Positions 14,195-45,444 of a stretch of DNA of 64,000 nt are shown in pieces (position 1 is the first letter of the stretch; each line of letters opens with the position of its first letter). The stretch spans positions 8,613 to 72,612 of the forward strand of contig CAZGRL010000007.1 of assembly GCA_964528155.1 (NCBI GenBank). Reading direction: 5' to 3'. This DNA is from an uncultured Anaerolineaceae bacterium. GTDB lineage: Bacteria; Chloroflexota; Anaerolineae; Anaerolineales; E44-bin32. A model generated the notes under the pieces. The model made no database searches. It was given only the letters and a program-made list of their open reading frames with translations, and was not told the origin of the DNA. The position numbers and the translations under genes were made by a program.

Positions 14195-14205
14195 CACAGG
14201 TGAGT

Positions 14206-14240: not shown

Positions 14241-14246
14241 GTTGGA

Positions 14247-15908
14247 TCAGACCGTCTTCAGATACTGGTGCACCAGGCTCACAGCGATCGCCCCCTCACC
14301 GACAGCCGAGGCCACTCGCCGGATGGCGCCCTGACGCACATCGCCCGCAGCGAAGATACCGGGCACGCTCGTTTCAAGCATGTATGGATCACGTTGCAGG
14401 CGCCACCCCTTGGGTCTGCGGCCGCCCTGGGTCAAATCCGGTCCCGTGAGAATGAAACCGACGCGGTTTCTCTCCACGACATCAGCGACCAGATCCGTGT
14501 GCGGAGCCGCTCCGATGAAGATGAACAGCGCCGCCGCGTCCATCGTTTGAGGCTCGCCTCCGTCAATGGGAGTGATCGTGATTGCCTCCAACTTTTCCTT
14601 ACCATGAACGGCGGTCACTTTCATCCGCACCACGATTTCGATGTTTTCCCGTCCCTTGATCTGATCGATCAAGTACTGTGACATGCTCGAATCAAGGCTC
14701 TCGCCGCGCACCACCATCGTCACCTTGGCGGCGTAGCGAGAGAAGAACATCGCGCCTTGCCCTGCGGAGTTCGCGCCCCCGACGACGAAGATGTGCTTGT
14801 CCCGGTAATGCGCAGCTTCAGTCAGCGCCGCTCCATAGTACACGCCAGCCCCTGTCAGCTCGTCGACCCCCTCGAGTTCGAGCTTGCGCACCGAAACACC
14901 GGTGGCGATGAGCAGCGCATGACAGCTCAGTTCCGTCCCGTCGCTCAAGGCGACGAAACGATAAGGATCATTGATACGCACGGCCGTGGCCTCGACGGTG
15001 GTCAGGATCTCGGCGCCAAAGCGCTTGGCCTGTGCCGTTGCACGCCGGGCGAGGTCCGCCCCGCTGACGCCGCTGGGAAAGCCGAGATAGTTCTCGATCC
15101 TTGAGCTCGTTCCCGCCTGACCGCCCGTCGCCTCCAGTTCGATCATGGCCGTGCGCAATCCTTCCGAGGCACCGTACACTCCGGCGCCCAAGCCTGCCGG
15201 CCCGGCGCCGACGATAATCAGATCGTAGAACGGCTGGGTGGCTTGAGTCTGCAGCCCGACCCTCTCGGCCAGGCTGCGGTTGTCGGGTTCGGCCAGGAAT
15301 GATCCGTCCGGGAAGAAAACGACGGGGAGCTTGGCCTCCCCTTTGATCGCGCCTTCGACCAGCTCTTTGGCCACACTGTCCGACTCGATATCCAGCCACT
15401 GGTACGGAATCTGATTCCTCGAGAGGAAGTCCTTGACTGCATGGCTGGTCGGTGACCAGAGCGTCCCGGCCACCCGGATGCCGTCGTACGGAATCGGTAC
15501 GGTCGCCAGCCAATCGCTCAGCAGATCATCCAGGACCGGGTAAAGGTTCTGTTCCGGCGGGTCCCAAGGCTTCAACAGATAGTGATCCAGCCCAACCTGG
15601 TTGATGCTTTCGATCGCCGCCTCAGTGTCGGCATAGGCAGTCAGCAGCACCTTCCGCGCTTCCGGGTAGATCTTCATCGCCCGAGTGAGGAACTCGGTCC
15701 CAATCATGACGGGCATTCGTTGATCCACCAAGAAGAGCGCAACCGGATCGTTTCGCTGCTTGAGGCGCTGAACAGTCTGCATCGCCTCGGTGCCGGATCC
15801 GGCCTTCACGATCCGGTAGTCCCCCCGGTAGTGCTGACGCAGATCGCGCTCGACCGCGTTCAACACCTGCGGCTCATCGTCGACCGTCATGATGATTGGC
15901 TTGGCCAT
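14247..15908 (-). CDS. Fused response-regulator receiver, glutaredoxin-like domain and thioredoxin-reductase-like FAD oxidoreductase
   Basis: MTVDDE...LFLVDQRMP receiver; IIVGAGPAGL, GGQAGTSSRIENYLGFP, VVGGANSAGQ, TSVPGIFAAGDV; the TrxB CxxC position reads GVYYGAA. Confidence 0.9.
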   Translation of the reverse strand: MAKPIIMTVDDEPQVLNAVERDLRQHYRGDYRIVKAGSGTEAMQTVQRLKQRNDPVALFLVDQRMPVMIGTEFLTRAMKIYPEARKVLLTAYADTEAAIESINQVGLDHYLLKPWDPPEQNLYPVLDDLLSDWLATVPIPYDGIRVAGTLWSPTSHAVKDFLSRNQIPYQWLDIESDSVAKELVEGAIKGEAKLPVVFFPDGSFLAEPDNRSLAERVGLQTQATQPFYDLIIVGAGPAGLGAGVYGASEGLRTAMIELEATGGQAGTSSRIENYLGFPSGVSGADLARRATAQAKRFGAEILTTVEATAVRINDPYRFVALSDGTELSCHALLIATGVSVRKLELEGVDELTGAGVYYGAALTEAAHYRDKHIFVVGGANSAGQGAMFFSRYAAKVTMVVRGESLDSSMSQYLIDQIKGRENIEIVVRMKVTAVHGKEKLEAITITPIDGGEPQTMDAAALFIFIGAAPHTDLVADVVERNRVGFILTGPDLTQGGRRPKGWRLQRDPYMLETSVPGIFAAGDVRQGAIRRVASAVGEGAIAVSLVHQYLKTV

Positions 15909-15983
15909 CTTCTCGTTATCCTTCTTCCGTCGCTCGTCCGCGTGGATCTATGTTCTTGTTCTCAACTGACCAGCAGGGAGCGA

Positions 15984-18900
15984 TCACGCCTTGGATAGCA
16001 CACGCACTTCGGGAAGGTCGAGAAACGATCGTCGTAGCTCGGCTGATCCAATATGCTCGGCGATGAATTCGACGATCTGCCCGGCTATGGCGTAGTGCTT
16101 TTGGGCCGACTCCGCGTGGCCCAGCTTCGTCTCAACCCACCCCAATCCGGCCTCAGTCCTCCATTCGAGCCGGCGCGAGCCGAGAGCCTGCGCGCGTGCG
16201 CGAGCTTCCATGAGCGCCTGGCTCGCCCGCTCCCACTGCCCTTGCTGGATGAATGCCCGGCCTCGAAGTTCGTAGAAGTCGGGGATGTGGATCTCCTGTC
16301 CTCGTCCTCCGACGCGATCCAGGAAGCCTTCGACGACCTTCAGAGCATCCTCTGGGTGCTCTTTGGCGATGGCCAACTCCGCTTCGGTCAGCGAGACGAT
16401 GAATTCGATGAAGAACAAGCTGGTATCGTGCGGATAATTCTTGGCCTCGTCGAGACGAGCGGTCGCGGCTTCAACATCGCCGCCCCGCAACGACGCAAAG
16501 GACATGACTGCCAACGGCCAGGACCGCCAGGCTTGGAGATTCTCGACCGCATACTCCAGAGCCGCCTGACTGACTTCTCGCGCTCTGTCGAATGCACCTA
16601 ACTCAACATATCGGACTCCCAGCAACCCCCTCGTCCCCATGGATGCGCCGGTGAAACCCGCTTGGTCTCCCAGCCGGATGCACTCCTCCATTGTCTCGAT
16701 GGCGAGTGCATAGTCGCCTCTCTCGGCATAGACCTCACCCTCAACCCACCGACTGTAGGACCGACCCCACGTGTTGCCGATCACATCACTGATTTTGCGC
16801 GACTCCCGGGCGGCCTCGATCACTTGATCGAACTTCCCACGGAAGAAATGCATGACCGCCATGCTGCCGTAGCTGTCCGCCAGCATGGGTTGGTTCCCAA
16901 GTTCTCTCCAGAGATGTTGAGCCTCCCCAAGTACGCGGACAGCGTCCTCCGTCCGATCAGCTCCCACGTATCCGTGGATCGCCAGATCGTTAAGGGTGAA
17001 TGCGGCTTGTTCCTTCAGCCCCTCTTCCCGAGCAATAGCCAGTGACTGCTCTCCGAACGGAATCCCCTCCTCTGGATGTCCCCCAAACTTCTCAGCCAGC
17101 ATCATGTTCCATAGGATCTTCGCCTCGGCCGGTCGATCGTCCATCCCTCGCGCAAGCTCGAGAGCCTTCTCAGAAAGCATCTTACCCTTGGCCGCATCCG
17201 CCGCAGAATTTGGTGTCGAGTACACCGTCCCCTTGGCAATCAATGCCGCCAACTCGAGCATGCGTTCCTTCCTCCGTAGGGCCAAGGATTTCAGTTCCTC
17301 ATAGTTGTTCAAGGCATCGTGATGCTGCCCGCTGAGCTCGAAGGCCCGTCCGCGTGACAGGTATAGGTGGAGCACGTCCTCGGCAGGGGCCTTGTCTTTA
17401 TCCAGGATCTCGAGAGCCTGCGTGTATTGGGCAATGGCCTCCGCGTTGGCGTACAGCTTCATCGCGGCATCGCCGGCCAACGTCGAGTACCTGGCGGCGC
17501 GCTCGTCTCCGGCTTCTCGAAAATGGTAGGCCAGCATTGGGTACAACTCCTCGAGCCGATCGGCGAAGAGCCGCTCAAGGGTTTCCCCAGTCCGTCGATG
17601 GAAATCCTTGCGTTGCGCTGCAAGAAGCGTGGCGTAGGTCACCTGCTGAACAAGAACGTTCTTGAAAGCGTACTCAAGTTCAGGAATGCGCGCCCTCTCC
17701 CGAACGAGATCGGCCCGTTGCAGACCCAGAATGCAATCTCGAAGCTCTGCGTGAAGTTGGGAGATTTCCTCCAAGACTTTGAAGGCGAACTGCCTGCCAA
17801 TAACCGATGCCACTTGCAGGGTCAACCTTTCGTCGCGCTTGAGTCGATCCAGTCTCGCCTGCACCACTTTTTCCAGCGTGTCCGGAACGTGCAAATGGGC
17901 TTCCGACTGGCCGACCGTCCAGCCACTATCCCCCTTGACCAATTGCCCTTCTTCGATCAGATCGCGTATAAGCTCCTCCAGGAAGAAGGGGTTTCCCTCC
18001 GAGATGTCGCAAATCCGATCCCGAACCGGCTCGGGCAACGCCGCTACCTCCAGAAGGCTGTCGATCATCGCCTCGCTCGAGGCGCCATCGAGAGGACCGA
18101 GCGTAAGCTCCACGTACCGGTGAGGAAAATCGCTCTCCGCCTTGACTTTGAGCTTCCAGCATGGTTTGTCGCGCTCGGGCCTAAACAAAAGGAACAGCAG
18201 GAGAGGCGCCGTCTCGGTCGAGAGCAGGAGCGTCTGAATCAAATTGAGCGAGCTCAGATCCGCCCAGTGCAGGTCATCGAAGACCAGACATAGCGGCTGC
18301 TTCTCGGCGTGGGCTTCGACGGTCCGGCAGACCGCGCTGGCGATCCTTTGATTGAGCGTGCTTGCGTCCAAACCCTCGAGTGTGGCGGTGGCGGCCGAAG
18401 GGACGGGGGCGCCGAGCAGGACAGCCAGATAGGGCCAGATCTCGTCAGCCGTGTCACCCAGGAGGGGGACGAGCCCTCGCTCGAGCTTCAGATCGAGCAG
18501 TGCCGGCGTGTCATCGGGGGCCAGATGCAAGAGTTCTCCAAGCAGGTTGAGTATCACCCCGTAGGGTCGGTCTTCCGCATAGGAGTAGGCGCGGCCTTCC
18601 GCCCAACGGACATCGTGGTCCTGAGAGTCTTCAATGACCTGTTGGAGCAGACGGGTCTTGCCTATCCCGGGTTCACCCAGGATACCGGCGATCGCTCCCC
18701 GGCCAGCAGCCAGGCCCTGGACAAGCTCCCCCAACTTTGCCCGCTCAGTCTGCCTCCCGATGAGCGGTGAAGGTAGCCCGCTGATTCCACGCTCGGACTC
18801 GGGCAGGCTACGTTCTGCCAGCAGCAAGAATGAGGTCACCTCGCCTTCGAAGCCTTTCACGGCCAACTTCTCTCGGTCCTCAAGCTCAAAGCGATGCCGG

Positions 18901-19469
18901 ATCAGGCGTGCTGTATTCTCGCCGAGGAGCGTTTCGCCCGGGTTGGCGGCGCTTTGCAGCCGGGCCGCCAGGTTGATCGGATCGCCCATGGCGGTGTATT
19001 CGGTCAGCGCTTCACCCCCAACGTCGCCCATCACGACGCGCCCGGTGTTGATCCCGATGCGCAGTTGGAGCGGCATTCGAATCTCGGCGGAATACTCACC
19101 GATCAATTCGTGCGTCCGCAACGCGGCCAACGCCGCCCTCTCGGCGTCGTCCTCATGGCCGATCGGCGCCCCAAAGAATGCCAGAAGACCATCGCCCATG
19201 AGTCTGGAAACGTTGCCGCCGTACTCGTCGACCCCTTTGCTCATCCGTTTCAGGCAACGGTCGAGCACGCCTTGAACCATCTCGGCTCCCATCCGCTGAC
19301 CGAGCTCGCTCGACCCGACAACATCGGCGAACAAGATGGTCACCAGGCGGAACTCGCCCGCCCGCTCGGCTGAATCTGCATCCGTGCCGGCCGCGGCGAG
19401 CTGGGTACCACAGGCGTTGCAGAACCGCGCCCCCTCCGGATTCTCAGAATGACACTTTGGACATTTCAC
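15984..19469 (-). CDS. Zn-ribbon / class III nucleotide cyclase / STAND-type AAA ATPase / TPR multidomain protein
   Basis: Start GTG 19469: KCPKCHSENPEGARFCNACG; VTILFADVVGS, MGDGLLAFFG, GDPINLAARLQ; Walker A GEPGIGKT, Walker B LVFDDLHWAD; TPR-like helical C-terminus. Confidence 0.92.
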   Translation of the reverse strand: MKCPKCHSENPEGARFCNACGTQLAAAGTDADSAERAGEFRLVTILFADVVGSSELGQRMGAEMVQGVLDRCLKRMSKGVDEYGGNVSRLMGDGLLAFFGAPIGHEDDAERAALAALRTHELIGEYSAEIRMPLQLRIGINTGRVVMGDVGGEALTEYTAMGDPINLAARLQSAANPGETLLGENTARLIRHRFELEDREKLAVKGFEGEVTSFLLLAERSLPESERGISGLPSPLIGRQTERAKLGELVQGLAAGRGAIAGILGEPGIGKTRLLQQVIEDSQDHDVRWAEGRAYSYAEDRPYGVILNLLGELLHLAPDDTPALLDLKLERGLVPLLGDTADEIWPYLAVLLGAPVPSAATATLEGLDASTLNQRIASAVCRTVEAHAEKQPLCLVFDDLHWADLSSLNLIQTLLLSTETAPLLLFLLFRPERDKPCWKLKVKAESDFPHRYVELTLGPLDGASSEAMIDSLLEVAALPEPVRDRICDISEGNPFFLEELIRDLIEEGQLVKGDSGWTVGQSEAHLHVPDTLEKVVQARLDRLKRDERLTLQVASVIGRQFAFKVLEEISQLHAELRDCILGLQRADLVRERARIPELEYAFKNVLVQQVTYATLLAAQRKDFHRRTGETLERLFADRLEELYPMLAYHFREAGDERAARYSTLAGDAAMKLYANAEAIAQYTQALEILDKDKAPAEDVLHLYLSRGRAFELSGQHHDALNNYEELKSLALRRKERMLELAALIAKGTVYSTPNSAADAAKGKMLSEKALELARGMDDRPAEAKILWNMMLAEKFGGHPEEGIPFGEQSLAIAREEGLKEQAAFTLNDLAIHGYVGADRTEDAVRVLGEAQHLWRELGNQPMLADSYGSMAVMHFFRGKFDQVIEAARESRKISDVIGNTWGRSYSRWVEGEVYAERGDYALAIETMEECIRLGDQAGFTGASMGTRGLLGVRYVELGAFDRAREVSQAALEYAVENLQAWRSWPLAVMSFASLRGGDVEAATARLDEAKNYPHDTSLFFIEFIVSLTEAELAIAKEHPEDALKVVEGFLDRVGGRGQEIHIPDFYELRGRAFIQQGQWERASQALMEARARAQALGSRRLEWRTEAGLGWVETKLGHAESAQKHYAIAGQIVEFIAEHIGSAELRRSFLDLPEVRVLSKA

Positions 19470-19972
19470 TCTTTCGATCCTCGCGTGCCAAGCAGGCAGA
19501 TGCCAACATACCACCCACGTCGAACAAGGCTCCACCCCTCAGCGAAGTTTTCAGGTTGGACGAGTTACGAGAGCGTCCGGGCCATCGCCTCACCAGCGAG
19601 GCCGATGTGACAAGTATACGCGATTCGCTGACGGCTGTCCTTCTTGTACGCCGGGCATGTACGCGCTCGACCCAGGAAGGAATGCTTTTGAACCCGAACG
19701 GTGCCTCGCACTCGCGTCATCACGGGGATTCCCTGGCGCCTGCAGGGTGCCTCGGCCAGCCGTGTCATTACGCCTGCCCACCTGTGCCTGCGCCCAGGTG
19801 CAGGCAGGCCGAACGCCAGGGAGCGGGCTCCGTGGCTGAGCGGGCATCCAGGAGGAACATCTAGCCGGCGGGTCGATCCTGATCGCGACACCCGGGGACG
19901 TTGCGTCCCTCCCCGATCCCGGGTATCCTTGATCGTCGCCGACCCTCAGGCCCACATGCTCACAGGAAACCG

Positions 19973-20617
19973 ATGTATATCGCAATCGAGGGGGTGATCG
20001 GGGTCGGGAAGACATCCCTGGCCCGTCTGCTTCAACCTGTGTTCGACGCCCGATTGTTGCTCGAGGCCTTCGAAGAGAACCCATTCCTCTCGGACTTCTA
20101 CAGCGACCGCACTCGCTTCGCATTCCAGACCCAGATCTTCTTCCTCTTGAGTCGCTATCGCCAACAGCGCGATCTGGTGCCTCAAGCCTCCGCTGGGAGC
20201 AACCTGATCGCCGACTACACCTTCGAGAAGGATTCACTTTTCGCTCGCTTGAATCTGGAAGGTGACGAGCTCGACACGTACATGCTCGTTCATGAGGCGC
20301 TGGCAGAGCGGATTGAGCGCCCGGACCTGGTCGTCTATCTCCGGGTGAGCACCGATATCGCCATGCAGCGCATCCAGATGCGCGATCGCCCCTTCGAGAG
20401 GCGGATGGAGCGGGATTACATCGATCGCCTCAACGCGGCCTATGAGTCATTCTTCATGAGCGCGCCCAGCAGCCGGGTGCTCACGATCGAGACCGACTCA
20501 TTGGATTTCGTGATTCACCCCAGCCACCTCAAGCAGATCACCAATCGCATCCGGGCCGCGCTGGGGATCCCGCCCTTCCAACCCGAGCTTCCGCTGATGG
20601 GAGACATGCCCCGGTGA
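19973..20617 (+). CDS. Deoxynucleoside kinase, copy 1
   Basis: MYIAIEGVIGVGKTSLA, ENPFLSDFY, FQTQIFFLLSRY, PDLVVYL, RDRPFE. Confidence 0.92.
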   Translation: MYIAIEGVIGVGKTSLARLLQPVFDARLLLEAFEENPFLSDFYSDRTRFAFQTQIFFLLSRYRQQRDLVPQASAGSNLIADYTFEKDSLFARLNLEGDELDTYMLVHEALAERIERPDLVVYLRVSTDIAMQRIQMRDRPFERRMERDYIDRLNAAYESFFMSAPSSRVLTIETDSLDFVIHPSHLKQITNRIRAALGIPPFQPELPLMGDMPR

Positions 20618-34044: not shown

Positions 34045-34254
34045 TCAATAATCCCTAATTCGCCTCATGCGGTCACGATACTTGTCCCGAAACTGGGCAT
34101 TGAGGCGCAGCACCTCTTGCTCGTTCCCGGTGAAGGAACAACGCAGGCAGTAGTACTCATCCTTCTGCCGGTCGTACAGCATGTCCATGTCGATCTCGCG
34201 TATCAAGCAGCGCGGACAGCGGTAATTCAGCTTGCCTTTTCGACCTTGAGCCAT
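34045..34254 (-). CDS. 69-aa putative zinc-finger protein (two CxxC)
   Basis: YRCPRCLIREIDMDMLYDRQKDEYYCLRCSF; GGAG Shine-Dalgarno; start overlaps the end of the upstream gene by 28 nt. Confidence 0.75.
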   Translation of the reverse strand: MAQGRKGKLNYRCPRCLIREIDMDMLYDRQKDEYYCLRCSFTGNEQEVLRLNAQFRDKYRDRMRRIRDY

Positions 34255-36059
34255 GTGCGCAATTCTCCCGGGCCCTTGACCGCCTTCTTGATCCCCAGGG
34301 TGTACATAGGCGAGAAGGCAAAGCCCTCCCGGAAATACCCCTCAGCGTCGTCGACATCTGTGAACATGGTCAGGCGTGTGTCCACCTGAGGCACGATCGC
34401 CTCGACCAGAGACACTCCGCTCACCTCGGCCTCGCGACACCGGTAGGCGTAATCGATGCTCTCCGTCCCGGATGACCCTGTCGCAGCCAGCCTCACGCCG
34501 GTGAGGTCTTCGGGATACTCGGTCGTTCCATAGCATGCCGTGATGTACTCATCGACGGTGATGTCCGCCTGAGCATCGCTGGTGGCGACAATCTTCCTGA
34601 CGATCTCGATCTCGCCTGTCGCCTCGGTGAACTTGAAAACAGACTGCACGCCGATCACAAGCCCATTGAACTCGATCTCCACGGGATCGAGCGTCAGAAT
34701 GCGAGTGTCTCCATTTTCGGAGAAGGAGGCCTGAGTGCGACAGGTGCACAGGTCCACCTGTTCACCCTTGTAGCCGAGCTTGCAGCTCTTGACGGCGCCT
34801 TCGCCAGCATAATGGGTGAAATAGCCGGCCCGGTACATTGATTGCACCAGGAAGGGGTATGAGGCGTCTTGCAGGTGGGCCGTGCCCACACCGCAGGGGC
34901 GCACCAGCCTGGCCGCGTAAGGACGCAAATCGATCATGGCCCCACCCTGGTTCATGTCCAGGCACAATCGCATCCACGGATCCAAATACCAGAACTGTTG
35001 CCGTCGCGAGCCGTAGAGTATGTCCTTCCAGAGCGCGCACTCGGGTCGAGAGTATGGGTGACTCTGGCGATACAGATCGGCGAACTCGCTCATGGTGACA
35101 TCTCGAGCCTGGCCTTCGCGCTTGAGCCGACCATAGTAGGCCATGCCGTCCCTGTAGCTCTTGAGCAGGAATTCGTAGTCGGCCTCCCAGCGACCGCCTT
35201 TGCTCATCCAGCCCGGCCCTACGAACATCATATTGTAGGAAAAACCGGCGTTGTATTTCGCCATCGCATGGTATTGGTCGACGATGTTGTTGAAGTAGGG
35301 GATTTCCCGGTTCTCATAGACCATGCCGCGCAGAATGTTCTGCGGGTGGGTGCCGTAGTATGAGCCGGGGCCGTCAAAGACAGCCATCAGGTCCCGGGAA
35401 AGGTGAGGGATAGCCACAACGCCGATGTCGTCTTCCTCATCCAGGGCCGGGCAGTGGATATTGCGCTTCGACGGTATCCACGGGTTCCACGGGCCGCCGT
35501 CAAACAGCGTGTACCAAGAGTTGTTGGCGTTCCAGTAAGCCTTTGGGCCCTCCTCCCAGCAGGTCGCCACGGCGACCTTTATCATGGGATACCTTTCCTT
35601 GAGATAGTTCACGAACTCGGCGTCCAGGTAGTAGGAACCCGTCGAAGTCGGATAGAAGCCGAACGCTTCGTGAAACCTTCCCAGCGCTTCGTCGACGATC
35701 TTTCGCTTGTCCTCCATCGAGAAGAGCCAGATCGCCAGTTCTCTGGATTTGAACCGGTCGCGAAATTCCTGGCACTGAAGACCAAGAAACGTCAGGCCGA
35801 TTTCGTCCCCGTACTCTTCGTGGTGTTCTTTCGCAGTGGCGATCGCCTCCGGGCTGAAGAGGCTGGCGTAAGTCATCTGGATGGTGGTGCGCAGCCCGTT
35901 TTCATGCGCGATCGACTGCTGGGTGCGGAAGATGTCAAGCGATTCTTGCAGGACACAATTCCGGGTCAGGTCCTCGTTCTTGCCCTGGTCGGCCTCCCTC
36001 TGGATGTACTCCGGCACCATCTCAGGCCGGTGGACAATCGTCACATAGAATTCGCTCAT
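34227..36059 (-). CDS. Uncharacterised 611-aa cytoplasmic protein, possibly a carbohydrate-active enzyme (barrel plus beta-sandwich)
   Basis: Long aromatic-rich ORF from MSEFYVTIVHRP; no signal peptide; last large gene of a sugar ABC operon; fold is inferred only. Confidence 0.8.
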   Translation of the reverse strand: MSEFYVTIVHRPEMVPEYIQREADQGKNEDLTRNCVLQESLDIFRTQQSIAHENGLRTTIQMTYASLFSPEAIATAKEHHEEYGDEIGLTFLGLQCQEFRDRFKSRELAIWLFSMEDKRKIVDEALGRFHEAFGFYPTSTGSYYLDAEFVNYLKERYPMIKVAVATCWEEGPKAYWNANNSWYTLFDGGPWNPWIPSKRNIHCPALDEEDDIGVVAIPHLSRDLMAVFDGPGSYYGTHPQNILRGMVYENREIPYFNNIVDQYHAMAKYNAGFSYNMMFVGPGWMSKGGRWEADYEFLLKSYRDGMAYYGRLKREGQARDVTMSEFADLYRQSHPYSRPECALWKDILYGSRRQQFWYLDPWMRLCLDMNQGGAMIDLRPYAARLVRPCGVGTAHLQDASYPFLVQSMYRAGYFTHYAGEGAVKSCKLGYKGEQVDLCTCRTQASFSENGDTRILTLDPVEIEFNGLVIGVQSVFKFTEATGEIEIVRKIVATSDAQADITVDEYITACYGTTEYPEDLTGVRLAATGSSGTESIDYAYRCREAEVSGVSLVEAIVPQVDTRLTMFTDVDDAEGYFREGFAFSPMYTLGIKKAVKGPGELRTWLKVEKAS

Positions 36060-36120
36060 GCTCGCTCTCTGGCGCACTCGACTGTGTCTTTTTGAGAAAC
36101 AGGACGGCGGGGGTCCAGGC

Positions 36121-36492
36121 TCAGGAGTCGATTGAGCTCGAAGCTCCGGCGGCGGGAAGCGCGGCCAGGAAACCATCATATGTCAGGGGATGCCACAGGC
36201 ACTGATCAGCACCCAGCTCACGCGCCCGCGCCTCATCGGTCGCGGATGAGCACACCATGACAGGGATGTCGCAGTTCACCAGCTCCGATATCAAAGACTG
36301 CGCCGCCTCCAGCTTTTCGAGCGATGGGAACAAGATCGCCGCCGGCCGCATACCGCATACCTCCAACGCCGATGGGATGCTCTGCATCAGGGCGATGTCA
36401 TGACCGCTTCGTTCGGCATATCGGCTGACAAGATATGCCAAGGCCGGGTCATTGCCGATCAACAGAAGTTTGGATGGCGAGGCTGATTTCAC
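36121..36492 (-). CDS. Stand-alone degenerate receiver (pseudo-REC) domain
   Basis: KLLLIGNDPALAYLV...RPAAILFPS...DIPVMVCSS...ARELGADQCLWHPL: CheY-like pattern without the acidic pocket, phospho-Asp or Lys. Confidence 0.65.
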   Translation of the reverse strand: MKSASPSKLLLIGNDPALAYLVSRYAERSGHDIALMQSIPSALEVCGMRPAAILFPSLEKLEAAQSLISELVNCDIPVMVCSSATDEARARELGADQCLWHPLTYDGFLAALPAAGASSSIDS

Positions 36493-36504: not shown

Positions 36505-37392
36505 CTAGCCCGAAAGGCTCCCCAGGCTCAAGCCCTCCTGCCAGTAGCGCTGCAGGAACAAGAAGGCGATCATCACCGGTACGATCGCCACCACCGAACC
36601 GGTGATGACAAGGATGTACAACACCTGAGAGACCCCCGGTTGAGAAGCCAGCGAGTTCCAGTATGCAAGGCCCACCGTAAGCAGGTATAGATCCGACCTG
36701 CTCAGCAGGAGCAGCGGCAGGAAGTAGTTGTTCCAGGCACCCACAAAGGCAAACAGCAGCACAGTCACGTAGCCGGGCGCCATCAAGCGGAAGGCGACCG
36801 TGGCGAAAATACGGAACTCACCGGCACCATCGACGCGGGCGGCGTCGATCAATTCCAGGGGTACCGCTTGTTCGGCGTAGATCCGCATCAGATAAACCCC
36901 GAAGGGATAAACCAAAGCCGGCAGGATCACCGCCAGGAGCGTGTTCGATAGGCCGCTCTTGCTCATCATCAGGAATAGCGGGACAGCGAAAACCGTTACC
37001 GGGACGAATACTGATGCCAACACGAGGCCGAACAATAGATTCCGGCCCGGGAACCGATACACCGCGAGGGCGTAGCCCGCCAGTGCGGCGATCAAGGACG
37101 CGCCCACCGCACTGCAGGCTGCGTAGATGGCCGTGTTGCGCATCCAGAGCACGAAATCCCCATTATCGTAGGCAAACAGGTCTTTGAGGTTTTGAATGAG
37201 GTTGAATTCTTTCCCGAACCAGAATCCGAACGTTGAGAAGAGACCTGCGTTTGTCTTGGTGCTGGAGATCAAGAGCCAGACCAGCGGGACCATGAAGTAG
37301 CCCAGAAACATCACCATCAAGGCGTATGTCAGCCTGCCATTTGCCCGCGGGCGAGCCTTGTAGTGCTCCGCAAACTCCGTCTTGGCTGTCAT
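36505..37392 (-). CDS. Carbohydrate ABC transporter permease (CUT1, MalG-like)
   Basis: LIDAARVDGAGEFRIF EAA-like motif, AWNNYFLPL, multiple TM segments; start ATG 37392. Confidence 0.93.
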   Translation of the reverse strand: MTAKTEFAEHYKARPRANGRLTYALMVMFLGYFMVPLVWLLISSTKTNAGLFSTFGFWFGKEFNLIQNLKDLFAYDNGDFVLWMRNTAIYAACSAVGASLIAALAGYALAVYRFPGRNLLFGLVLASVFVPVTVFAVPLFLMMSKSGLSNTLLAVILPALVYPFGVYLMRIYAEQAVPLELIDAARVDGAGEFRIFATVAFRLMAPGYVTVLLFAFVGAWNNYFLPLLLLSRSDLYLLTVGLAYWNSLASQPGVSQVLYILVITGSVVAIVPVMIAFLFLQRYWQEGLSLGSLSG

Positions 37393-37396
37393 CACA

Positions 37397-38338
37397 CTAC
37401 CGCTCCCTGCGAGTTGCGACCAAGACCAGCGAGGCCAGGATCGCCGATACGAGCGCCAGGGTAAAGGCCATCGCTCCCGCGTACTCGAACTGGGCGTTAC
37501 GGAACGCGGTGTTGTAGAGATAGACGTTCGGCGTGAAGTGCAGATTGACGACGGACGGGGCAACTACGGTCAGGACGTTTGGTTCATTGAAGAGTTGCAG
37601 CGTGCCGATGACCGAGAATATCATGGTCAGCGTGATCGCCGGCCAGACCATCGGGATGCGAATATGCCAGGAAACCTGCCAATCGCTGGCGCCATCGACT
37701 CGAGCCGCGTCGTAGATCTCGGCAGGAATGGCCTTTAGCGCAGCATAGATGATCAGCATGTTGTAGCCGGTGTACTGCCATGTGGAGATGTTGGCGATGG
37801 CGGGGATGATGCCCCTCGCCGTGAGAAACACAGGCGGCTGCAGATTCAACGCGGTAGCAATCTGGGCAATGGGCCCAAATCCCTGTCCGTAGAGGTATCC
37901 CCAGACCAGCGCCGCTACGACGCTCGGCACCGCAAACGGCAGGAAGTAACCCAGACGAAAGACGGTCAGACGCCGGATGATCTTCGCGTCCAGCACAACC
38001 GCAAAGGCCAGGGCCAGCCCGAGCATCACCGGGATCTGCAACGCGCCAAAGATCAGCACGTTGCGTATCCCCTCCCAGAAAAAGGCATCCTGCAAGACTT
38101 TGCCGTAGTTGGCAAGCCCGACGAATGTCAGCCCACCGATGATTTGCTTCCGGTACAGACTCGAGGCAAAGGAGTAGACCAGGGGATAGATCATGAAGGC
38201 GACGTACCCAATAAGGAAGGGCAACAGGAACAGGAAAGGTGTGGCACCCCTCTTAACCCGCCGCCACGAAAACCGCCTTGGCGAATAGCGCCCCTCGTCA
38301 GCCGGTGACTTTGACCCAGACACTCCAACGAGGGACAT
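37397..38338 (-). CDS. Carbohydrate ABC transporter permease (CUT1, MalF-like)
   Basis: FVGLANY, PFAVPSVVAALVW, WQYTGYNM, IYDAARVDGA, LQLFNEP; AGGAGG before ATG 38338. Confidence 0.93.
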   Translation of the reverse strand: MSLVGVSGSKSPADEGRYSPRRFSWRRVKRGATPFLFLLPFLIGYVAFMIYPLVYSFASSLYRKQIIGGLTFVGLANYGKVLQDAFFWEGIRNVLIFGALQIPVMLGLALAFAVVLDAKIIRRLTVFRLGYFLPFAVPSVVAALVWGYLYGQGFGPIAQIATALNLQPPVFLTARGIIPAIANISTWQYTGYNMLIIYAALKAIPAEIYDAARVDGASDWQVSWHIRIPMVWPAITLTMIFSVIGTLQLFNEPNVLTVVAPSVVNLHFTPNVYLYNTAFRNAQFEYAGAMAFTLALVSAILASLVLVATRRER

Positions 38339-38368
38339 GCTCTTCCTCCTGGCAAATTCCACTCGATA

Positions 38369-38501: not shown

Positions 38502-39869
38502 TCATGGCGTGGTGACCGTGAAGCCCTGATCCTGAGCATACGATACACATTGATCCTGCAAGGTCTGCATCGCCTGCTCGAAAGTGACCGAGCCAGCGCG
38601 GACCTGAGTCAGAAGGTCGGCATAGGTCGTGTACACAAAGCTCGTGAACGGGCTCCACCCAAATTCGGGATCGACCTGCTTAGCCGCCTCTGCCATGACC
38701 TGATGGATCGCCTGCCCGCTCCAGTAATCATACGGCACATCTGACCACTGGGGATTCGCCAGCGTGTCCAGGGTGACAGGGAACAGCCCGGCCTTGTCGG
38801 GGTTGGTGAGCTCCAGGGTGGCCGTAGGGTCTGTGTTCAGCCATCGAGCGAACTCAGCCGCTTCTTGCGGATGTGCGCTGGCCTTCGTCACGGCGATGGT
38901 CGATCCGCCGTAGTTGCCGTTCACCTTGCCGCCCGCCGTCCATTGCGGCATGAGATAGACTTTCCACTGCCCGGCGAAGTCCGGCCCATAGGAGGAGATG
39001 TACGTCCCCCACGCGCCGGCCTGCCAACAGGCGATGGTGCCGTTGCCCAGCGCGGCGTTCCAGTCGTCGGTGTAGGTGTCGATCGGGCTCAGCACACCGG
39101 CATCCATCATGTCGCCCCAGAGCTTGACAACGCGGGTTACCTCCGGCGAGGTGAAATCAATGGCAATGTTCGCGCCGTCTACGACGAATGGCCGCGCGCC
39201 GGATTGCCACAGCATGCCGAAGAACCATCCCTGATCCGCCGTGAAGTTGGACAGGTAGACATTCGCGTCGGCCTGGTGTAGATCTGCTGCAGCCTGGGCG
39301 AATTCATCCCACGTCGTCGGGACGCTGATGTTGTACTTTCCGAGTATTGCATCGTTGCAGAACATGACCATCGGCCCGGCATCTTGCGGGTATGCATAGA
39401 CACCGTCACCTTGCGAAACCTGCGACCACGTCCATGTGACGAATTGGTCCTTGACGTCGTTCGCCCCGAAGTCCGCCAGGTTTAGCAGCTCGTCTAGCAC
39501 GATGTAGCCGGGGAGGTGCTGGTATTCTATCTGGACCACGTCGGGTATGTCCGTGTTGGCCTGGATAGCCGTATTGAGCAGAGTATACTCGGCGTTACCT
39601 GCACCTGCGTTTCTGTAGTTGACAAAGATGTCGGGGTGCGACTGGTTCCACTCGTTGACCTGATCCTCAATGCTCGGCACCCACGACCAGAAGACGATCT
39701 CGACCGCTCCGGCCGGTGGAGCCTCCGTCGCGGCGGCCGGGGCCTCCGTCGCGGCGGCCGGAACTTCAGTGGCGGCGACCGGGGCGGCAGTCGGCGTGGC
39801 AGCCGGGGCGCAGGCTGCCATCAACAATAGTGCGGCAATCACGACAAGAAGGGTGATCTTTCTCTTCAT
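38502..39869 (-). CDS. Sugar ABC transporter substrate-binding lipoprotein
   Basis: MKRKITLL...LMAAC lipobox, ATEAP-repeat linker, IVFWSWVP, PDVVQIEY, YAYPQDAGP, PTTWDEF, GGSTIAVTKASAHP. Confidence 0.93.
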   Translation of the reverse strand: MKRKITLLVVIAALLLMAACAPAATPTAAPVAATEVPAAATEAPAAATEAPPAGAVEIVFWSWVPSIEDQVNEWNQSHPDIFVNYRNAGAGNAEYTLLNTAIQANTDIPDVVQIEYQHLPGYIVLDELLNLADFGANDVKDQFVTWTWSQVSQGDGVYAYPQDAGPMVMFCNDAILGKYNISVPTTWDEFAQAAADLHQADANVYLSNFTADQGWFFGMLWQSGARPFVVDGANIAIDFTSPEVTRVVKLWGDMMDAGVLSPIDTYTDDWNAALGNGTIACWQAGAWGTYISSYGPDFAGQWKVYLMPQWTAGGKVNGNYGGSTIAVTKASAHPQEAAEFARWLNTDPTATLELTNPDKAGLFPVTLDTLANPQWSDVPYDYWSGQAIHQVMAEAAKQVDPEFGWSPFTSFVYTTYADLLTQVRAGSVTFEQAMQTLQDQCVSYAQDQGFTVTTP

Positions 39870-39939
39870 CTTCTTCTCCTTCTGAGAGACGGATCGTACA
39901 GCGCGGCCAAGCTCGCCGAGTGCTCGGCAAGCTACCTGC

Positions 39940-39990
39940 ATTGTAGGGCAGCGCCCTCGGCGAGTCTTGTCGCAGAGCGGGACGTTTTTG
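39940..39990 (-). promoter_or_regulatory. Activator-dependent promoter of the ABC operon
   Basis: Minus strand: CAAAA-N16-CAAGA-N19-TACAAT. Confidence 0.65.
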
Positions 39991-40087: not shown

Positions 40088-40199
40088 ACGGGCTGTGAGG
40101 CGGGGCCATGACGCCCAACGGGTTATCACCACTCAGCCTGCCACTCCCGTTCTCGGCGATAGCCTTGCAGCCGGCCTACGGAAGAGCGGGAGGGAGATT

Positions 40200-41237
40200 A
40201 TGACCGCTTCTCTTGCCATTTTGGGCGCCGATGTATCCTCTCTTCAACGCGCTCAGGACCTTGGCGCCGAGTACCGTGATGATGACCTAAGCCAACGCGA
40301 TCCCATGCTCATCCTGATCGATCATGGCGTGAATGCCATCCGCCTGCGTGTCTGGGTCGATCCCCCTCATGGCTACAACAACAAAGAGCGTGTCGCCGAG
40401 TTCGCTGCCCGGATGAAGGCCAAAGGACTGCTTCTGCTCATCGATCTTCACTACTCGGATACCTGGGCCGATCCGGGGCACCAGACCAGGCCGGCAGCCT
40501 GGGCCGATCACAGCTTCAGCCAGCTCCAGGCGGACGTGTACGACCACACCCTGGAGGTATGCGAACATCTGAAATCCCGCGGGGCGACGCCGAACATGGT
40601 CCAGATCGGCAACGAGATTAACAGTGGCATGTTGTGGCCTGAAGGCCATACCAATGAATGGGACGGACTGGCGGCGCTTCTCAAGCAGGGCTACGAAGCA
40701 GCCAAGGCTTGTTCAGCCTCGATTGATGTCATGCTTCACATCGCCAATGCCGGGGACGGGGTCGGGGCGCGCAAATGGTTCGACAATGCGAGAGCGCGTG
40801 GCGTGCCTTGGGATGTAGCCGGCCTGTCGTATTACTCCTACTGGCATGGCCCGATGGCAGCCATGACCGACACCGTCAGGGACCTGAAGACACACTACGG
40901 GAAACCTGTCGTGATCGCCGAGACCGCCTATCCATTCACACTCGGGGAGAATGACGGCGAGGACAACCTCATCCATGACCCCGGCCTGTTGACTCCCGGC
41001 TACCCGGCGAGCCCCATCGGTCAGAGCGACAATCTCAAAGCCGTATTGGCGGCTGCAGACTCAGGGGGAGCAGTGGGGGTCTTCTACTGGGAGCCAACCT
41101 GGACGGCTGTGAAGGGAAACGGCTGGGATCCGGCCAATCCCGAGTCGGGTGATCAGTGGGAGAACCAGGCGCTGTTCGACTTCGACCGCAGGTCCCTGCC
41201 GGCGTTGAGCGCGTTCAAGCCATGGAGCCAGCGGTGA
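40200..41237 (+). CDS. GH53 endo-beta-1,4-galactanase, no signal peptide
   Basis: ILGADVSSL, NAIRLRVWVDP, LIDLHYSDTWADPGHQ, VQIGNE (acid/base), VIAETAYPF (nucleophile), GVFYWEP, WENQALFDF. Confidence 0.93.
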   Translation: MTASLAILGADVSSLQRAQDLGAEYRDDDLSQRDPMLILIDHGVNAIRLRVWVDPPHGYNNKERVAEFAARMKAKGLLLLIDLHYSDTWADPGHQTRPAAWADHSFSQLQADVYDHTLEVCEHLKSRGATPNMVQIGNEINSGMLWPEGHTNEWDGLAALLKQGYEAAKACSASIDVMLHIANAGDGVGARKWFDNARARGVPWDVAGLSYYSYWHGPMAAMTDTVRDLKTHYGKPVVIAETAYPFTLGENDGEDNLIHDPGLLTPGYPASPIGQSDNLKAVLAAADSGGAVGVFYWEPTWTAVKGNGWDPANPESGDQWENQALFDFDRRSLPALSAFKPWSQR

Positions 41238-41279: not shown

Positions 41280-44200
41280 TTAGTTTTGAGTTCTTCGCCG
41301 GTAGGCGCGCGGAGTCACGCCGATCTCGCGCTGAAAAGTGCGCGTGAAGTGCGCCCCGTCGGAGAAACCGACGGCGAGGGCGATCTGCGTGATGGAGAGA
41401 TCCGTGCTGGCGAGCATCTCACACGCCTGATGGATGCGATAGCGGCGCAGGTAGGTGATCGGGGTGATACCCAACTCCTGGCGGAAGCAGTCAGTCAGGT
41501 AGTCGGGACTGATGCCAACATGGCTGGCGATGTGTTCGCGGGAAAGCGACTCAGCATAGTGTGTGTGGATCCAACCCATCGCCTTACGCACGAGCCGTTG
41601 GGTTACACGCCCCAGGGTTTGTTGCCGGGCCAACGCCGCCTCGATGTGGTTTATCGTCTCGCTGGCACTGAACAAACCCTTGCCCAGGATGGCGGCGACA
41701 CCACGGTTGCAGCGTTCGAGATCAGCCTCGGATAATACACGACCAGTCAAGATGATTACAGGGATGTCTCGCGTCCCCTCGCGCTGCCGCAGGGCGTCGA
41801 GAACGCCGAAGCCGTCCATCTCGGGCATCATCAAATCGAGCAAGATAAGATCCGGCCGCGTGCCTTCCAGTACCTCAAGGGCCTCAAGACCGTTGCGCGC
41901 AGTAAGCGCCCGATAGTTGCCTTGTTCAACCAAACGACGGTGCATGTCGAGAATTCCCGGATCGTCGTCGACAATCAGGACTGCGGGCTGACCATCTCCG
42001 ATCCCACAATAACGGGCCAGCTCGCCGGCGATTTGGGTGGGCCGGAGCGGTTTGTGCAGGTAATTCAGTTCCATGAGCTCGCCTTGATCATGATCGATGT
42101 CCAGCGAATAGGCCACTACCGGGATGTTCTCGGTCGCCGGTTGTCGCTTTAGCATCCCGGTAATCGTCCAACCCTCGCGAGCCGCCAGGCCCTCTTCCAA
42201 GATCAAGGCTGCCGGCAGTCGAGTTGTGACGTTCGCCAGCCAATCGGGATCCCTGTCGACCCGACACACCTGAACCTCGAAGCCCCGCTCGCGCAGATTC
42301 GCGCAGAGCTGCTCTGTGGCCTGCGCGCCCTCCGACAGCACCATCACGATATTGCCTTGAGTTGCCAGAGGCACCGCAAGGTTGTCCTGCAATGCGTTGG
42401 CAGAGACGATCGGCAAGGTGAAGAAGAAGGTCGACCCGCTCCCGAGCAGGCCGGGCGAGCGCACACCGATCTTCCCCCCATGCTTCTCAACCAACTGTTT
42501 GGAGATCGTCAATCCCAGGCCCAGGCCGCCGTAGCCCGAGTCCAGCGAGCGCTCCGAGCGGTGGAACTCCTGAAAGATGGCCTCCTGCTCCGAGGGCGGT
42601 ACGCCGACCCCGGTGTCGCTGACCGAGATCGTAGCCCGCTGATCGGCGACTTCCATCGTAAGTGCCACTTCGCCGGTCGGAGTGAACTTGACCGCATTGG
42701 AGATAAGGTTCAGCGTAACCTGGCGCAGTCTCGTCCGGTCGCCGAGCACCCATGGACCAAGCCCTGGCAGTTGCGCACGCCACGTCAAGCCTCTCTCGCG
42801 CGCCAGTTGCTCGCCGATCTTGGCCGCCACACGCAGCACCTCGGCCAGGTCAAGTGGCTCACGCAGGATGCGCAACTGGCCGGCTTCACTGCTGGCCAGA
42901 TCAAGAACGTCGTTGATCAAGCGAGACAGATGTTGCGCACTTGTGCTTATCTGCCCGAGATCGCGCCTGGTTGCGCTGGGTAGCTCTGATTGCTCACGCA
43001 AGACCATTTCGCTGAGTCCCACGATCAGGCTCAGCGGGGTCCGCAACTCATGGCTGACCATAGACAGGAAGCGCGTCTTCAAGCGATTGGCCTGTTCGGC
43101 CAGTTTCCTACCCTCCAGAGCATCCCGGTACAAGTAGCTATTGCGCAGAGCAGATGCGAGGTTGTGCACGACCGCCGCGCACGGCTCGAGATCCGTCGAG
43201 CTGAATGCTATGAATCCATTCGTGTACTCATCGACGACCAGGGGCAGGATAGCCAGTTGAAGCACCGAGTCCGCCGGATACACCCCCGGAGGCGGGAACT
43301 CGCGTGTCACGAATTCGCCTTGCGCACCACCGTCTTTCAGACCCACCTCAAGGAGGACGTGGCTGCGCGACACCGGATCATCATCTCGCGAGGTAAACAC
43401 CGCGACCAGCGCGTGTTGGATGCCCAAATGCGGCAAGTGGTCCGCCAGGATCGCGGCGCTTTCGGAGACGTCCAGAGCTGCCAGCAACTGCGATGTCATC
43501 AACCCCAGTCGATTCGAGGTCGCCATGTGCCTCACCAGCGCTCCGCTCGTCTGGCGCTGCGCCAAGGCAGCTATGGCGAGGTGTGCCCCGTCGATCAATT
43601 CGCTCGCCATACTTGGGTCTGCCCGTGGCAGTGCATACATCAGGCCGGGCAAACCACCATGCAGCGCGGAGAGTGCCGAATGCCAGGCATTCGCGTCTTC
43701 CGCCTGCGCTTCTAGCCATTCGAGGAGTCGCTGCAACTCGTCGTTGAAGTAAGCCGGGGCAAGGTGCGTCACACTTGATACCAGCGATTCCACGAGGCCC
43801 AGGCACAGAGCCTGGATATCTTCCCGAGGCGTGTGCCGTAGTTCGGTGAAGGCTGCCTCTGCCATCACACGCGCCAGGTTGCCTCGGATGCTCTGCAGCT
43901 CTGCCGGCGAAGATTCGCCGAGAGGCGCAGCCCGCACACTGCCGAGGCGACAGCCACACGACTGGCGAACGATGAGCTGCGTCTCGACTCGCGCGTTGCT
44001 CTCTCCCGGCGCCTCGTCACAGATGGACTCGAGCACCGAGAGCACGGCTCGATATCCGAGCGTGAATGTCGGGTGGCGGACAGTTGTGAGTGGTGGAAGG
44101 TAAGATCGTGCTTCCAGGATGTCGTCGAAACCGACGACGGCCACATCCTCCGGAATGCTCAATCCCGAGGCCCTCAGTTCCTCCATAGCGCCCAGCGCCG

Positions 44201-44846
44201 ACAAGTCATTGCTGGCAAGCAGAGCAGTAAACGGCCCACCGGAGGCAAGGATACGCTGCATGGCGATCCGACCACCTTCGCGGCGATGCTCGCCAAATGC
44301 GATCAAACGCTCGTCTTCCTCAATTCCGGCACTGCACAGGGCTGCCCGGTACGCTGCCAGGCGCTCAGCGCTATCACCGCCGCGTCCGGATTTTCCGGCC
44401 ACAAAGGCGATCCTGCGGTGACCGTGCTCGAGAAGATGATCGAATGCCTGGCGAATCCCGCCGGCATTGTCCACGGCAACCATCCGGCCCGGCTTTTCAG
44501 CCGTGGTGAACACAACCGGATAGCCTGAGCGGATCAAGTCCTGCACGTAGTCGAATTGAGCGTCCGAGAAGTCGTCGGGGATGACGATCAGTCCATCGGT
44601 GTTCCATGGTCCTACCGGCACGAAGTCGACCCCGGCTCCAGGCACGGCCCAGACCGTCCGGCTGCCGCGCGGGCTGCCAGGAAGAGATATCCCACAACCC
44701 ATGAGCAGCCCGCAATTCTGCGCACTGGCTGCGGCGCGGATTCCCTGCAGCAGAGTATGTGTGTAGCTATCGATTGTTGTGCCTTCATAGACCGACCAGG
44801 TCGACAAGAAACCTATGATTGGTCGGGCATGACTCTTCAAGGGCAT
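41280..44846 (-). CDS. Cytoplasmic hybrid regulator: LacI-type sugar-binding domain, His kinase, degenerate REC, REC, AraC HTH
   Basis: VAVDNAGG, HGHRRIAFVAG, PEDVAVVGFDD, SHELRTPL, NLISNAVKFT, DTGVG, GLGLGL, GSTFFF, LLDLMMPEMDGF, YLTDCFRQELG, AVGFSDGAHFTRTF; start ATG 44846. Confidence 0.92.
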   Translation of the reverse strand: MPLKSHARPIIGFLSTWSVYEGTTIDSYTHTLLQGIRAAASAQNCGLLMGCGISLPGSPRGSRTVWAVPGAGVDFVPVGPWNTDGLIVIPDDFSDAQFDYVQDLIRSGYPVVFTTAEKPGRMVAVDNAGGIRQAFDHLLEHGHRRIAFVAGKSGRGGDSAERLAAYRAALCSAGIEEDERLIAFGEHRREGGRIAMQRILASGGPFTALLASNDLSALGAMEELRASGLSIPEDVAVVGFDDILEARSYLPPLTTVRHPTFTLGYRAVLSVLESICDEAPGESNARVETQLIVRQSCGCRLGSVRAAPLGESSPAELQSIRGNLARVMAEAAFTELRHTPREDIQALCLGLVESLVSSVTHLAPAYFNDELQRLLEWLEAQAEDANAWHSALSALHGGLPGLMYALPRADPSMASELIDGAHLAIAALAQRQTSGALVRHMATSNRLGLMTSQLLAALDVSESAAILADHLPHLGIQHALVAVFTSRDDDPVSRSHVLLEVGLKDGGAQGEFVTREFPPPGVYPADSVLQLAILPLVVDEYTNGFIAFSSTDLEPCAAVVHNLASALRNSYLYRDALEGRKLAEQANRLKTRFLSMVSHELRTPLSLIVGLSEMVLREQSELPSATRRDLGQISTSAQHLSRLINDVLDLASSEAGQLRILREPLDLAEVLRVAAKIGEQLARERGLTWRAQLPGLGPWVLGDRTRLRQVTLNLISNAVKFTPTGEVALTMEVADQRATISVSDTGVGVPPSEQEAIFQEFHRSERSLDSGYGGLGLGLTISKQLVEKHGGKIGVRSPGLLGSGSTFFFTLPIVSANALQDNLAVPLATQGNIVMVLSEGAQATEQLCANLRERGFEVQVCRVDRDPDWLANVTTRLPAALILEEGLAAREGWTITGMLKRQPATENIPVVAYSLDIDHDQGELMELNYLHKPLRPTQIAGELARYCGIGDGQPAVLIVDDDPGILDMHRRLVEQGNYRALTARNGLEALEVLEGTRPDLILLDLMMPEMDGFGVLDALRQREGTRDIPVIILTGRVLSEADLERCNRGVAAILGKGLFSASETINHIEAALARQQTLGRVTQRLVRKAMGWIHTHYAESLSREHIASHVGISPDYLTDCFRQELGITPITYLRRYRIHQACEMLASTDLSITQIALAVGFSDGAHFTRTFQREIGVTPRAYRRRTQN

Positions 44847-45444
44847 GGCGGTTGCGCTCTGTGGGGTTGGTCGATCATCGAATGGAGCAGCGCGCGAGGA
44901 GGTGGAGGGCGGATGGAACAGATCTGGTGGATGGCACACGCCGCGCTCTCGCAATCAGCATCATACCCACAATCTGCCTGGAACTCAAGCCGACCACTCG
45001 AGAGCATGCCCCCAGCGCCGGTCGGCGCCCGTCACAGGGCACCGACCTCGTCCCTCGACACGCTCCTTTGGAGAGCGGGCCTCCACCAGCTTGCATGCTC
45101 GGACCTGTACACCCCTCGACCGCCGGGGCGGGTCCAAAATCGGAGTGTCCTCATTCGGCGATATCTAGAGGGGCTTGCTGGGCCTGCCACCCGGCAAGGC
45201 CCTGCTGAGCGTATGTGGCCTGGTCCTAGCAGAACCGGCGGACCGAAAGGCACTCCGCTGGATGCTCAATCGATGCGACCGTCCCAGCGTCGGATCGAAT
45301 GTTGATCCAACATCCCGACCGACGATCAGACCGAGCAGCCCTCGCCTGATACGTCGGTGCGCCCCGCCACTGTTCTGCGGCTGTGCCATAATAGGCCAGG
45401 AGCTGGATGAAACCTCGCACGCCTGACCGTTGGGAGTTGCCAAG

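Follow-up and report, generated by a model that had tools for sequence, protein, structure and literature searches.

In a 64,000-nt stretch of DNA from an uncultured Anaerolineaceae bacterium (hereafter, the window) two overlapping genes, encoding a large protein of 610 aa and a small zinc-ribbon protein of 69 aa, close a sugar-import operon divergent from the gene of a GH53 endo-beta-1,4-galactanase. This pair is real, widespread and uncharacterised, and constitutes a new family within a known fold class. The breakdown of galactan and pectin side chains is held to be well understood, with GH53 acting extracellularly, import by an ABC transporter, and GH42, GH2 or GH35 enzymes acting inside; the pair is a third, very strongly conserved component of galactan loci, for which we have found no name, Pfam family or literature. 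The reading that we prefer, giving it a little better than an even chance, is that the two proteins are subunits of one cytoplasmic carbohydrate-active enzyme of an undescribed GH57/GH38/DUF3863-like family, acting on imported galactan oligosaccharides.

The open reading frame (ORF) of the large protein starts with an ATG at 36059 and ends with a stop codon at 34227–34229; its translation begins with MSEFYVTIVHRPE. The first-pass annotation, made from the sequence alone, had identified this ORF correctly and had counted its 611 codons, stop included, as 611 aa. It had also supposed that the protein belongs to no known family, and by sequence this holds: neither the protein itself nor a profile of its close homologues has a match in Pfam, NCBIfam or PDB sequences. 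We find 2422 homologues at E ≤ 1e-3, and therefore the gene is real; at the same threshold, an exhaustive search of 1.84 billion cluster representatives yields 672 clusters. Full-length relatives of 570–680 aa extend down to about 24% identity, and in the databases all homologues are named “hypothetical protein.”

Known families of carbohydrate-active enzymes were considered one by one. Glyco_hydro_57 (PF03065) gives no match at E ≤ 10 for the window protein and five close homologues, and none at E ≤ 1 among 38 diverse members. Pfam matches are likewise absent for Glyco_hydro_38N and 38C (the large protein and the diverse members), for Polysacc_deac (the window protein and the 38 diverse members), and for the catalytic domains of GH42, GH2 and GH35 (the large protein and its homologues). 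Membership in GH42, GH2, GH35, GH57, GH38 or CE4 by sequence was thus rejected. No sequence of the diverse set reaches any Pfam cut-off, the sole recurrent sub-threshold family being DUF3863 (PF12979), seen in two of the 38 members (best score 16.6 bits, E 0.0036, cut-off 27 bits), with no match for the window protein itself. The profile of diverse sequences reaches a single PDB sequence, 3LM3, at E 0.0068.

A model of the large protein was built by AlphaFold from a 35-sequence alignment (pLDDT 92.4, pTM 0.92) and compared with PDB by Foldseek. Two domains are predicted, an N-terminal beta/alpha barrel (residues ~1–335) and an all-beta, mutarotase-like C-terminal domain (~340–610). The first-ranked structure is 3LM3, a DUF3863 protein with the title “putative glycoside hydrolase/deacetylase” (E 3e-17, probability 1.00, template modelling (TM) score 0.67 on the target). 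It is followed by the GH57 4-alpha-glucanotransferase of Thermococcus litoralis (1K1X/1K1W, E 6.5e-13 to 1e-11), matched over the whole length with a global TM of only 0.27 and a root-mean-square deviation (rmsd) of about 20 Å over 750 columns, so that the domains are alike and their arrangement is not confirmed. The GH38 alpha-mannosidases 7UFS and 6RRJ are found at E 7e-8 to 1e-5. The C-terminal half matches galactose mutarotases, the YidC P1 domain, and beta domains of GH38, GH36 and PL17, and the barrel, CE4-like deacetylases 3QBU (E 7e-7, TM on the target 0.66) and 1Z7A (E 9e-5, TM 0.56). These results agree with the fold guessed in the first-pass annotation, GH57/GH38- or DUF3863-like with a beta-rich C-terminal part. 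As modelled, the large protein is a member of the glycoside hydrolase/deacetylase barrel superfamily and a sister of DUF3863, built on the plan of GH57 and GH38, with a distorted barrel and then a beta domain; by their sequence definitions, it falls outside GH57, GH38 and DUF3863.

In an alignment of 38 full-length sequences, the most distant of which share 22% identity with its reference sequence (positions are numbered as in the window protein), invariant positions include D146, E170, G171, G188, W191, P196, R222, R244, R364, D377, R379 and P402. E169, H219, D85 and E86 are near-invariant, as is R410 in broad alignments. In the predicted secondary structure, strand 4 is followed by D146, strand 5 by C167-W-E169-E170-G (from the CWEEGP motif, residues 167–172), strand 6 by P-H219-L-x-R222-D, and strand 7 by W284. 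These positions are at the C-terminal strand ends of the predicted barrel, which is where barrel enzymes place their active sites. R364 and the motif GGAxxD377-L-R379-P-Y, with all three numbered residues invariant, are located in the C-terminal domain, which suggests that this domain lends a loop to the pocket. One more motif, H10-R11-P12 after strand 1, presumably resembling the HQP motif of GH57, is lost in the most distant clade, where the two proteins are fused. D146 and E170 are the most likely candidates for the catalytic carboxylates, judging from the alignment and the model.

The small protein has two knuckles, C13-x2-C16 and C36-x2-C39, in the pattern RCPxC...YYCxxC, followed by a basic C-terminal helix. 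All four cysteines are invariant in five sequences down to 34% identity, and by inspection are also kept in all full-length small proteins of the loci set and in the fused clade. Matches to known ribbons are weak (TFIIB, E 0.025; HVO_2753, E 0.005–0.08). The ATG of the small gene sits inside the end of the large gene, the overlap being 28 nt.

Linkage of the two genes was assessed in 90 loci (the window, nine from look-ups of exact proteins, and 80 found by scanning 185,579 species genomes). In 89 of them the large gene is directly followed by a homologue of the small gene, usually with an overlap; in the one other locus the contig breaks off within the small gene. Given this conservation the small gene is real, and its interpretation as a chance overlapping ORF was rejected, the more so as it is fused to the large gene elsewhere. 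Relatives of the large protein with only 34–44% identity are also followed by a homologous ribbon of 62–72 aa. Natural fusions are represented by 13 proteins of 661–704 aa from a Verrucomicrobiae clade, with the ribbon at the C-terminus connected via a linker of about 30 residues; in the model of one such fusion (pTM 0.91) the linker has low confidence, and the ribbon with its helix, pLDDT of 79–94. Taken together, the adjacent position of the genes, their translational overlap, their co-conservation and the fusions speak for a physical complex of the two proteins. The role of accessory subunit, proposed for the zinc finger in the first-pass annotation, is strongly supported by the near-universal adjacency, the overlap and the fusions.

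Some ribbons and fusions have features of their own. In Planctomycetota (L040, L042, L043, L045, L046; small gene after 11806) the ribbon is extended at the C-terminus by ~35 residues, among which Pro, Thr and Lys abound, to a total of 103–107 aa. The fused Verrucomicrobiae homologues in L090 (10001–13137) and L091 (10001–14064) are followed by one or two genes of the URO-D family (PF01208), and the one in L090 is also located near giant GH42-like proteins of about 1200–1300 aa. This neighbourhood suggests a different, possibly methyl-sugar-related role of the fused clade.

The pair is present in at least 588 genome loci, and the large protein, in more than 2400 database proteins. The ortholog group, 60–87% identical to the window protein, comprises Anaerolineae and other Chloroflexota, Sedimentisphaerales and Phycisphaerales (71–72%), and Lachnospiraceae and Clostridia (60–64%), including cultured Blautia schinkii DSM 10518 and Diplocloster hominis. 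More distant relatives are found in Verrucomicrobiota. Two contigs labelled Gammaproteobacteria and Actinomycetota (L016 and L017) contain copies 77–79% identical to the window protein among Chloroflexota-like neighbours, and these labels probably reflect mis-binning rather than true hosts. DNA nearly identical to positions 34045–36492 of the window occurs only in salt-marsh and marsh metagenome DNA runs, and was found in no RNA run.

Median identity to the window in Chloroflexota, Planctomycetota and Bacillota, respectively, is 77, 71 and 62% for the large protein and 82, 65 and 55% for the small one, compared to 51, 37 and 36% for the adjacent GH53. By this measure, the pair is under much stronger constraint than a typical neighbouring degradative enzyme. 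Conservation so unusual for a degradative enzyme, as well as the resemblance of the small protein to generic nucleic-acid-binding zinc ribbons (the TFIIB and HVO_2753 matches) and its very basic C-terminal helix, would fit a large protein that is a non-enzymatic sugar-binding sensor, signalling through the ribbon to DNA, RNA or the transcription machinery. We regard this as the least probable of the readings considered here, and very improbable in itself. The ribbon matches are weak and generic, fusion at the C-terminus fits a structural domain equally well, acidic residues invariant at strand ends are what a catalytic pocket typically shows, and regulators dedicated to this task are already present in the loci (the hybrid kinase-AraC protein, LacI, two-component systems).

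Neighbouring genes were counted within 10 kb in 83 non-duplicate ortholog loci, of which 47 are well-flanked, with 8 kb or more on either side. GH53 is found in 63 of the 83 loci and ABC permeases in 54, across Chloroflexota, Planctomycetota and Bacillota, so that the expected co-occurrence with GH53 and sugar importers is observed and strong; among the well-flanked loci, GH53 is present in 36. GalK is encoded nearby in 13 loci, and GalT in seven. The composition of the loci varies. For example, L001 comprises three GH53 genes, a solute-binding protein (SBP), two permeases, a homologue of the 123-aa gene of the window, the pair, and GH42; L002, GH43, the pair, and GH35; L003, galK and galT, GH53, the pair, and GH42. 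In the Lachnospiraceae locus L060 the order is SBP, permease, permease, large gene, small gene, and a cytoplasmic GH53, with a secreted GH53 upstream. In L040 from Sedimentisphaerales, GH2 and the pair lie opposite an MFS_2 transporter, GH53, GH42 and GH112 (lacto-N-biose phosphorylase family), noted at 12134–20551 on the minus strand; an unannotated 512-aa protein with no Pfam match is also encoded there.

The first-pass annotation had assigned the pair to the slot of a beta-galactosidase, and as a position in the operon this is correct: in both the window and L060 the pair holds the place of GanA after SBP, permease and permease. GH53 without GH42, GH35 or GH2 within 10 kb is observed in 15 of the 47 well-flanked loci, and no beta-galactosidase is found within 10 kb in L060. 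The noted absence of GH42, GH2 and GH35 from the window was upheld by the Pfam scan of ten of its largest ORFs (455 aa and up) and by tblastn with GH42, GH35 and GH2 queries over the 64 kb; a decayed GH42 remnant was searched for downstream of the small gene and not found. All this would be consistent with the pair being a plain analogue of beta-galactosidase that replaces the GH42 enzyme GanA and converts imported galacto-oligosaccharides to galactose. We nevertheless consider this unlikely, as replacement is only partly supported across the loci. GH42, GH35 or GH2 accompany the pair in 23 of the 47 well-flanked loci, and in L003, L010, L013, L015, L017 and L020 a GH42 match is located within about 200–450 nt of where the large gene ends. 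In L010, the closest relative of the window locus (87%), this match starts at a distance of about 450 nt from that end, directly after the small gene. A redundant enzyme beside GH42 is not expected to stay so strongly constrained, and the beta-galactosidase missing from the window may sit elsewhere in the source genome.

Distant paralogues are located near genes for GH28, deacetylase (Polysacc_deac_1), SASA, GDSL, GH43, GH36, GH2 and a rhamnogalacturonan I (RG-I) lyase-like protein, which links the family in its wider sense to pectic glycans generally. The presence of Polysacc_deac_1, SASA and GDSL in this list, the CE4-type deacetylases 3QBU and 1Z7A among the structural matches, and the word “deacetylase” in the title of 3LM3 could indicate that the large protein is a carbohydrate esterase or deacetylase, or another non-glycosidic hydrolase of decorated pectic oligosaccharides. 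This is very unlikely in our opinion: no Pfam deacetylase match exists, inspection of the alignment reveals neither the Asp-His-His nor the TFDD motif of CE4, the fused clade has lost H10, and the invariant set consists of carboxylates and arginines. Nor is beta-1,4-galactan known to be an acetylated substrate.

The window itself has the gene layout noted initially; the ORFs and the Pfam scan confirm the order of the operon (SBP, permease, permease, 123-aa protein, large protein, small protein, all on the minus strand), the divergent GH53 and the double-CxxC protein (Table 1).

Table 1. Features of the window discussed in the text; ORFs were read from the sequence and families assigned by Pfam scan
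Feature	Position	Strand	Assignment
Solute-binding lipoprotein (SBP)	38502–39941	-	SBP_bac_1, 9.5e-24 (Pfam)
ABC sugar permease	37397–38362	-	BPD_transp_1 (Pfam)
ABC sugar permease	36505–37395	-	BPD_transp_1 (Pfam)
123-aa receiver-like protein	36121–36492	-	Profile matches to REC domains
Large protein, 610 aa	34227–36059	-	No signal peptide, predicted cytoplasmic
Small protein, 69 aa	34045–34254	-	Two CxxC knuckles, zinc ribbon
GH53 endo-beta-1,4-galactanase	40095–41237	+	Pfam 1.3e-109; divergent from the operon
Hybrid regulator, 1224 aa, one polypeptide	41280–44954	-	LacI-type sugar-binding domain, HisKA/HATPase, receiver, AraC helix-turn-helix (Pfam)
Receiver domain fused to thioredoxin-reductase-like flavoprotein, 553 aa	14247–15908	-	Not related to the pair
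1183-aa protein	15984–19535	-	Zinc ribbon, adenylate cyclase, AAA and TPR domains; not related to the pair

The true start of SBP is likely the internal MKRKIT at about 39869, followed by a lipobox-like LMAAC. Scanning the operon for promoters and terminators yielded nothing informative. GH53 of the window has no signal peptide from either candidate start, and the Pfam domain starts at residue 42 of the longest ORF; for lack of a signal peptide with both possible starts, the enzyme is probably cytoplasmic. An intracellular endo-galactanase is unusual. A short GH53 (about 367–387 aa) adjoins the pair in several other loci, and L060 has in addition a long secreted GH53 with Big_4. Homologues of the hybrid regulator are encoded within 10 kb in 16 other loci, all from the Chloroflexota-like group.

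The 123-aa protein shows weak profile similarity to receiver (REC) domains in PDB (RpaA, E = 1e-3; others up to 0.07). By inspection, it appears to have neither the usual acceptor Asp (AILFPS) nor the conserved Lys (HP instead of KP), and the label “pseudo-REC” seems reasonable, if lightly tested. Its homologues, with identity of 33–73%, are found only in Chloroflexota loci (18 of 83), usually directly upstream of the pair or several kb off, and the gene is an accessory gene of Chloroflexota loci.

Under the preferred reading, that of a two-subunit cytoplasmic enzyme, SBP and the two permeases would import galactan oligosaccharides, the apparently cytoplasmic GH53 could cut them internally, and the pair would then perform a further step on short oligosaccharides. 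Most likely, the pair would attack a galactosidic linkage, or one associated with galactan, in exo mode through a two-carboxylate mechanism, for which D146 and E170 are the putative catalytic residues. The active site would be formed at the C-terminal ends of the barrel strands by D146, E169/E170, H219/R222 and R244, complemented by the loop of the C-terminal domain with R364, D377 and R379, and the zinc-ribbon subunit would bind the large subunit at a fixed ratio, as a structural piece or one completing the active site. Since GH42, GH35 or GH2 coexist with the pair in about half of the well-flanked loci, it probably adds a step rather than merely replaces beta-galactosidase. Candidates for such a step could be a linkage or chain length poorly handled by GH42, an oligosaccharide with caps or branches, or phosphorolysis or disproportionation. 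At loci such as the window and L060, the pair is possibly the sole exo-acting enzyme encoded nearby.

The last of these candidates can be stated as a separate explanation, in which the pair would be a galacto-oligosaccharide phosphorylase or a disproportionating transglycosylase, sparing ATP in strict anaerobes, in analogy to GH57 4-alpha-glucanotransferase and other oligosaccharide phosphorylases. Among enzymes matched over the whole length, a GH57 glucanotransferase is the best, and the named hosts are Anaerolineae, Sedimentisphaerales, Lachnospiraceae and Clostridia, best known as anaerobes. Arginines that could bind phosphate are invariant or nearly so (R222, R244, R364, R379) or near-invariant (R410), and coexistence with GH42 would be explained. 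On the other hand, we see no specific evidence of a phosphate site, GH112 phosphorylase is already present in some loci, and the prevalence of GalK over GalT nearby gives no sign of a route bypassing GalK. Such an activity is in our view improbable.

Several considerations weigh against the interpretation of the pair as a galactan-processing enzyme. A search of the literature on DUF3863, PF12979, BDI_3119, 3LM3 and hypothetical proteins of galactan loci yielded nothing relevant, and no activity has been measured for any member of the family or for DUF3863, the enzymatic role of the pair being one that we infer. GH57 and GH38 cleave alpha-linkages, and galactan is beta-1,4-linked. The EE motif is not kept in 3LM3 according to the profile alignment, and D146 and E170 are candidates selected by conservation and strand position only. 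The fold superfamily also includes esterases and deacetylases. Such high conservation, combined with a basic zinc ribbon like those of nucleic-acid binders, is unusual for a glycosidase. Finally, distant relatives are found in GH28, esterase, GH43 and GH36 loci, and the substrate of the family is thus not uniformly galactan.

Should the pair be an enzyme, a new family of glycosidases or phosphorylases would be established, unusual in its obligatory zinc-ribbon subunit, and models of how gut and sediment anaerobes use pectin would gain a missing piece. Our more specific proposal is a new CAZy-type family, that is, a heteromeric glycoside hydrolase or phosphorylase needing a dedicated zinc-ribbon subunit, and with it a so far unrecognised cytoplasmic step of beta-1,4-galactan (pectin side-chain) catabolism in anaerobes, including gut Lachnospiraceae; this we advance tentatively, as a possibility falling somewhat short of even. 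Cultured hosts, Blautia schinkii and Diplocloster hominis, both from largely gut-associated genera, and a clear candidate substrate make it directly testable.

The closest structure is that of DUF3863 (PF12979; 3LM3, BDI_3119 of Parabacteroides distasonis), with 422 columns aligned by Foldseek, and the motifs around PxYPS and the strand-6 Asp are common to the large protein and 3LM3. However, the identity is 18%, and the Pfam scores are 12–17 bits against the cut-off of 27. The 449-residue chain of 3LM3 (434 residues in the fold library) covers chiefly the barrel half of the large protein, has not retained the CFEEG motif according to the profile alignment, and is itself uncharacterised; a zinc-ribbon partner of it is not known, though none was looked for here.

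The GH57 4-alpha-glucanotransferase (1K1W, 1K1X) appears to share the two-domain plan, a barrel followed by a beta-sandwich, matched over the whole length. GH57 enzymes combine a (beta/alpha)7 barrel and a C-terminal beta domain, and have a catalytic Glu nucleophile at strand 4 and an Asp acid/base at strand 7 within five conserved regions; in the large protein, the invariant D146 (after strand 4) and E170 (after strand 5) are candidates only. In contrast to the pair, it is a single-chain enzyme acting on alpha-glucans; no sequence match to it is observed, and the low global TM (0.27) and high rmsd (about 20 Å) suggest that the orientation of the domains differs. The GH38 alpha-mannosidases (7UFS, 6RRJ) have a barrel of the same superfamily and a mutarotase-like C-terminal domain, and the candidate Asp nucleophile of the large protein is likewise located after strand 4, but they are much larger proteins, and the large protein has no Pfam GH38 match. 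Finally, GH42 enzymes of the GanA/GalO type from ganSPQAB-like operons share with the pair the operon position after SBP and two permeases, as well as GH53 as a partner, while being unrelated to it in fold and sequence and often present alongside it.

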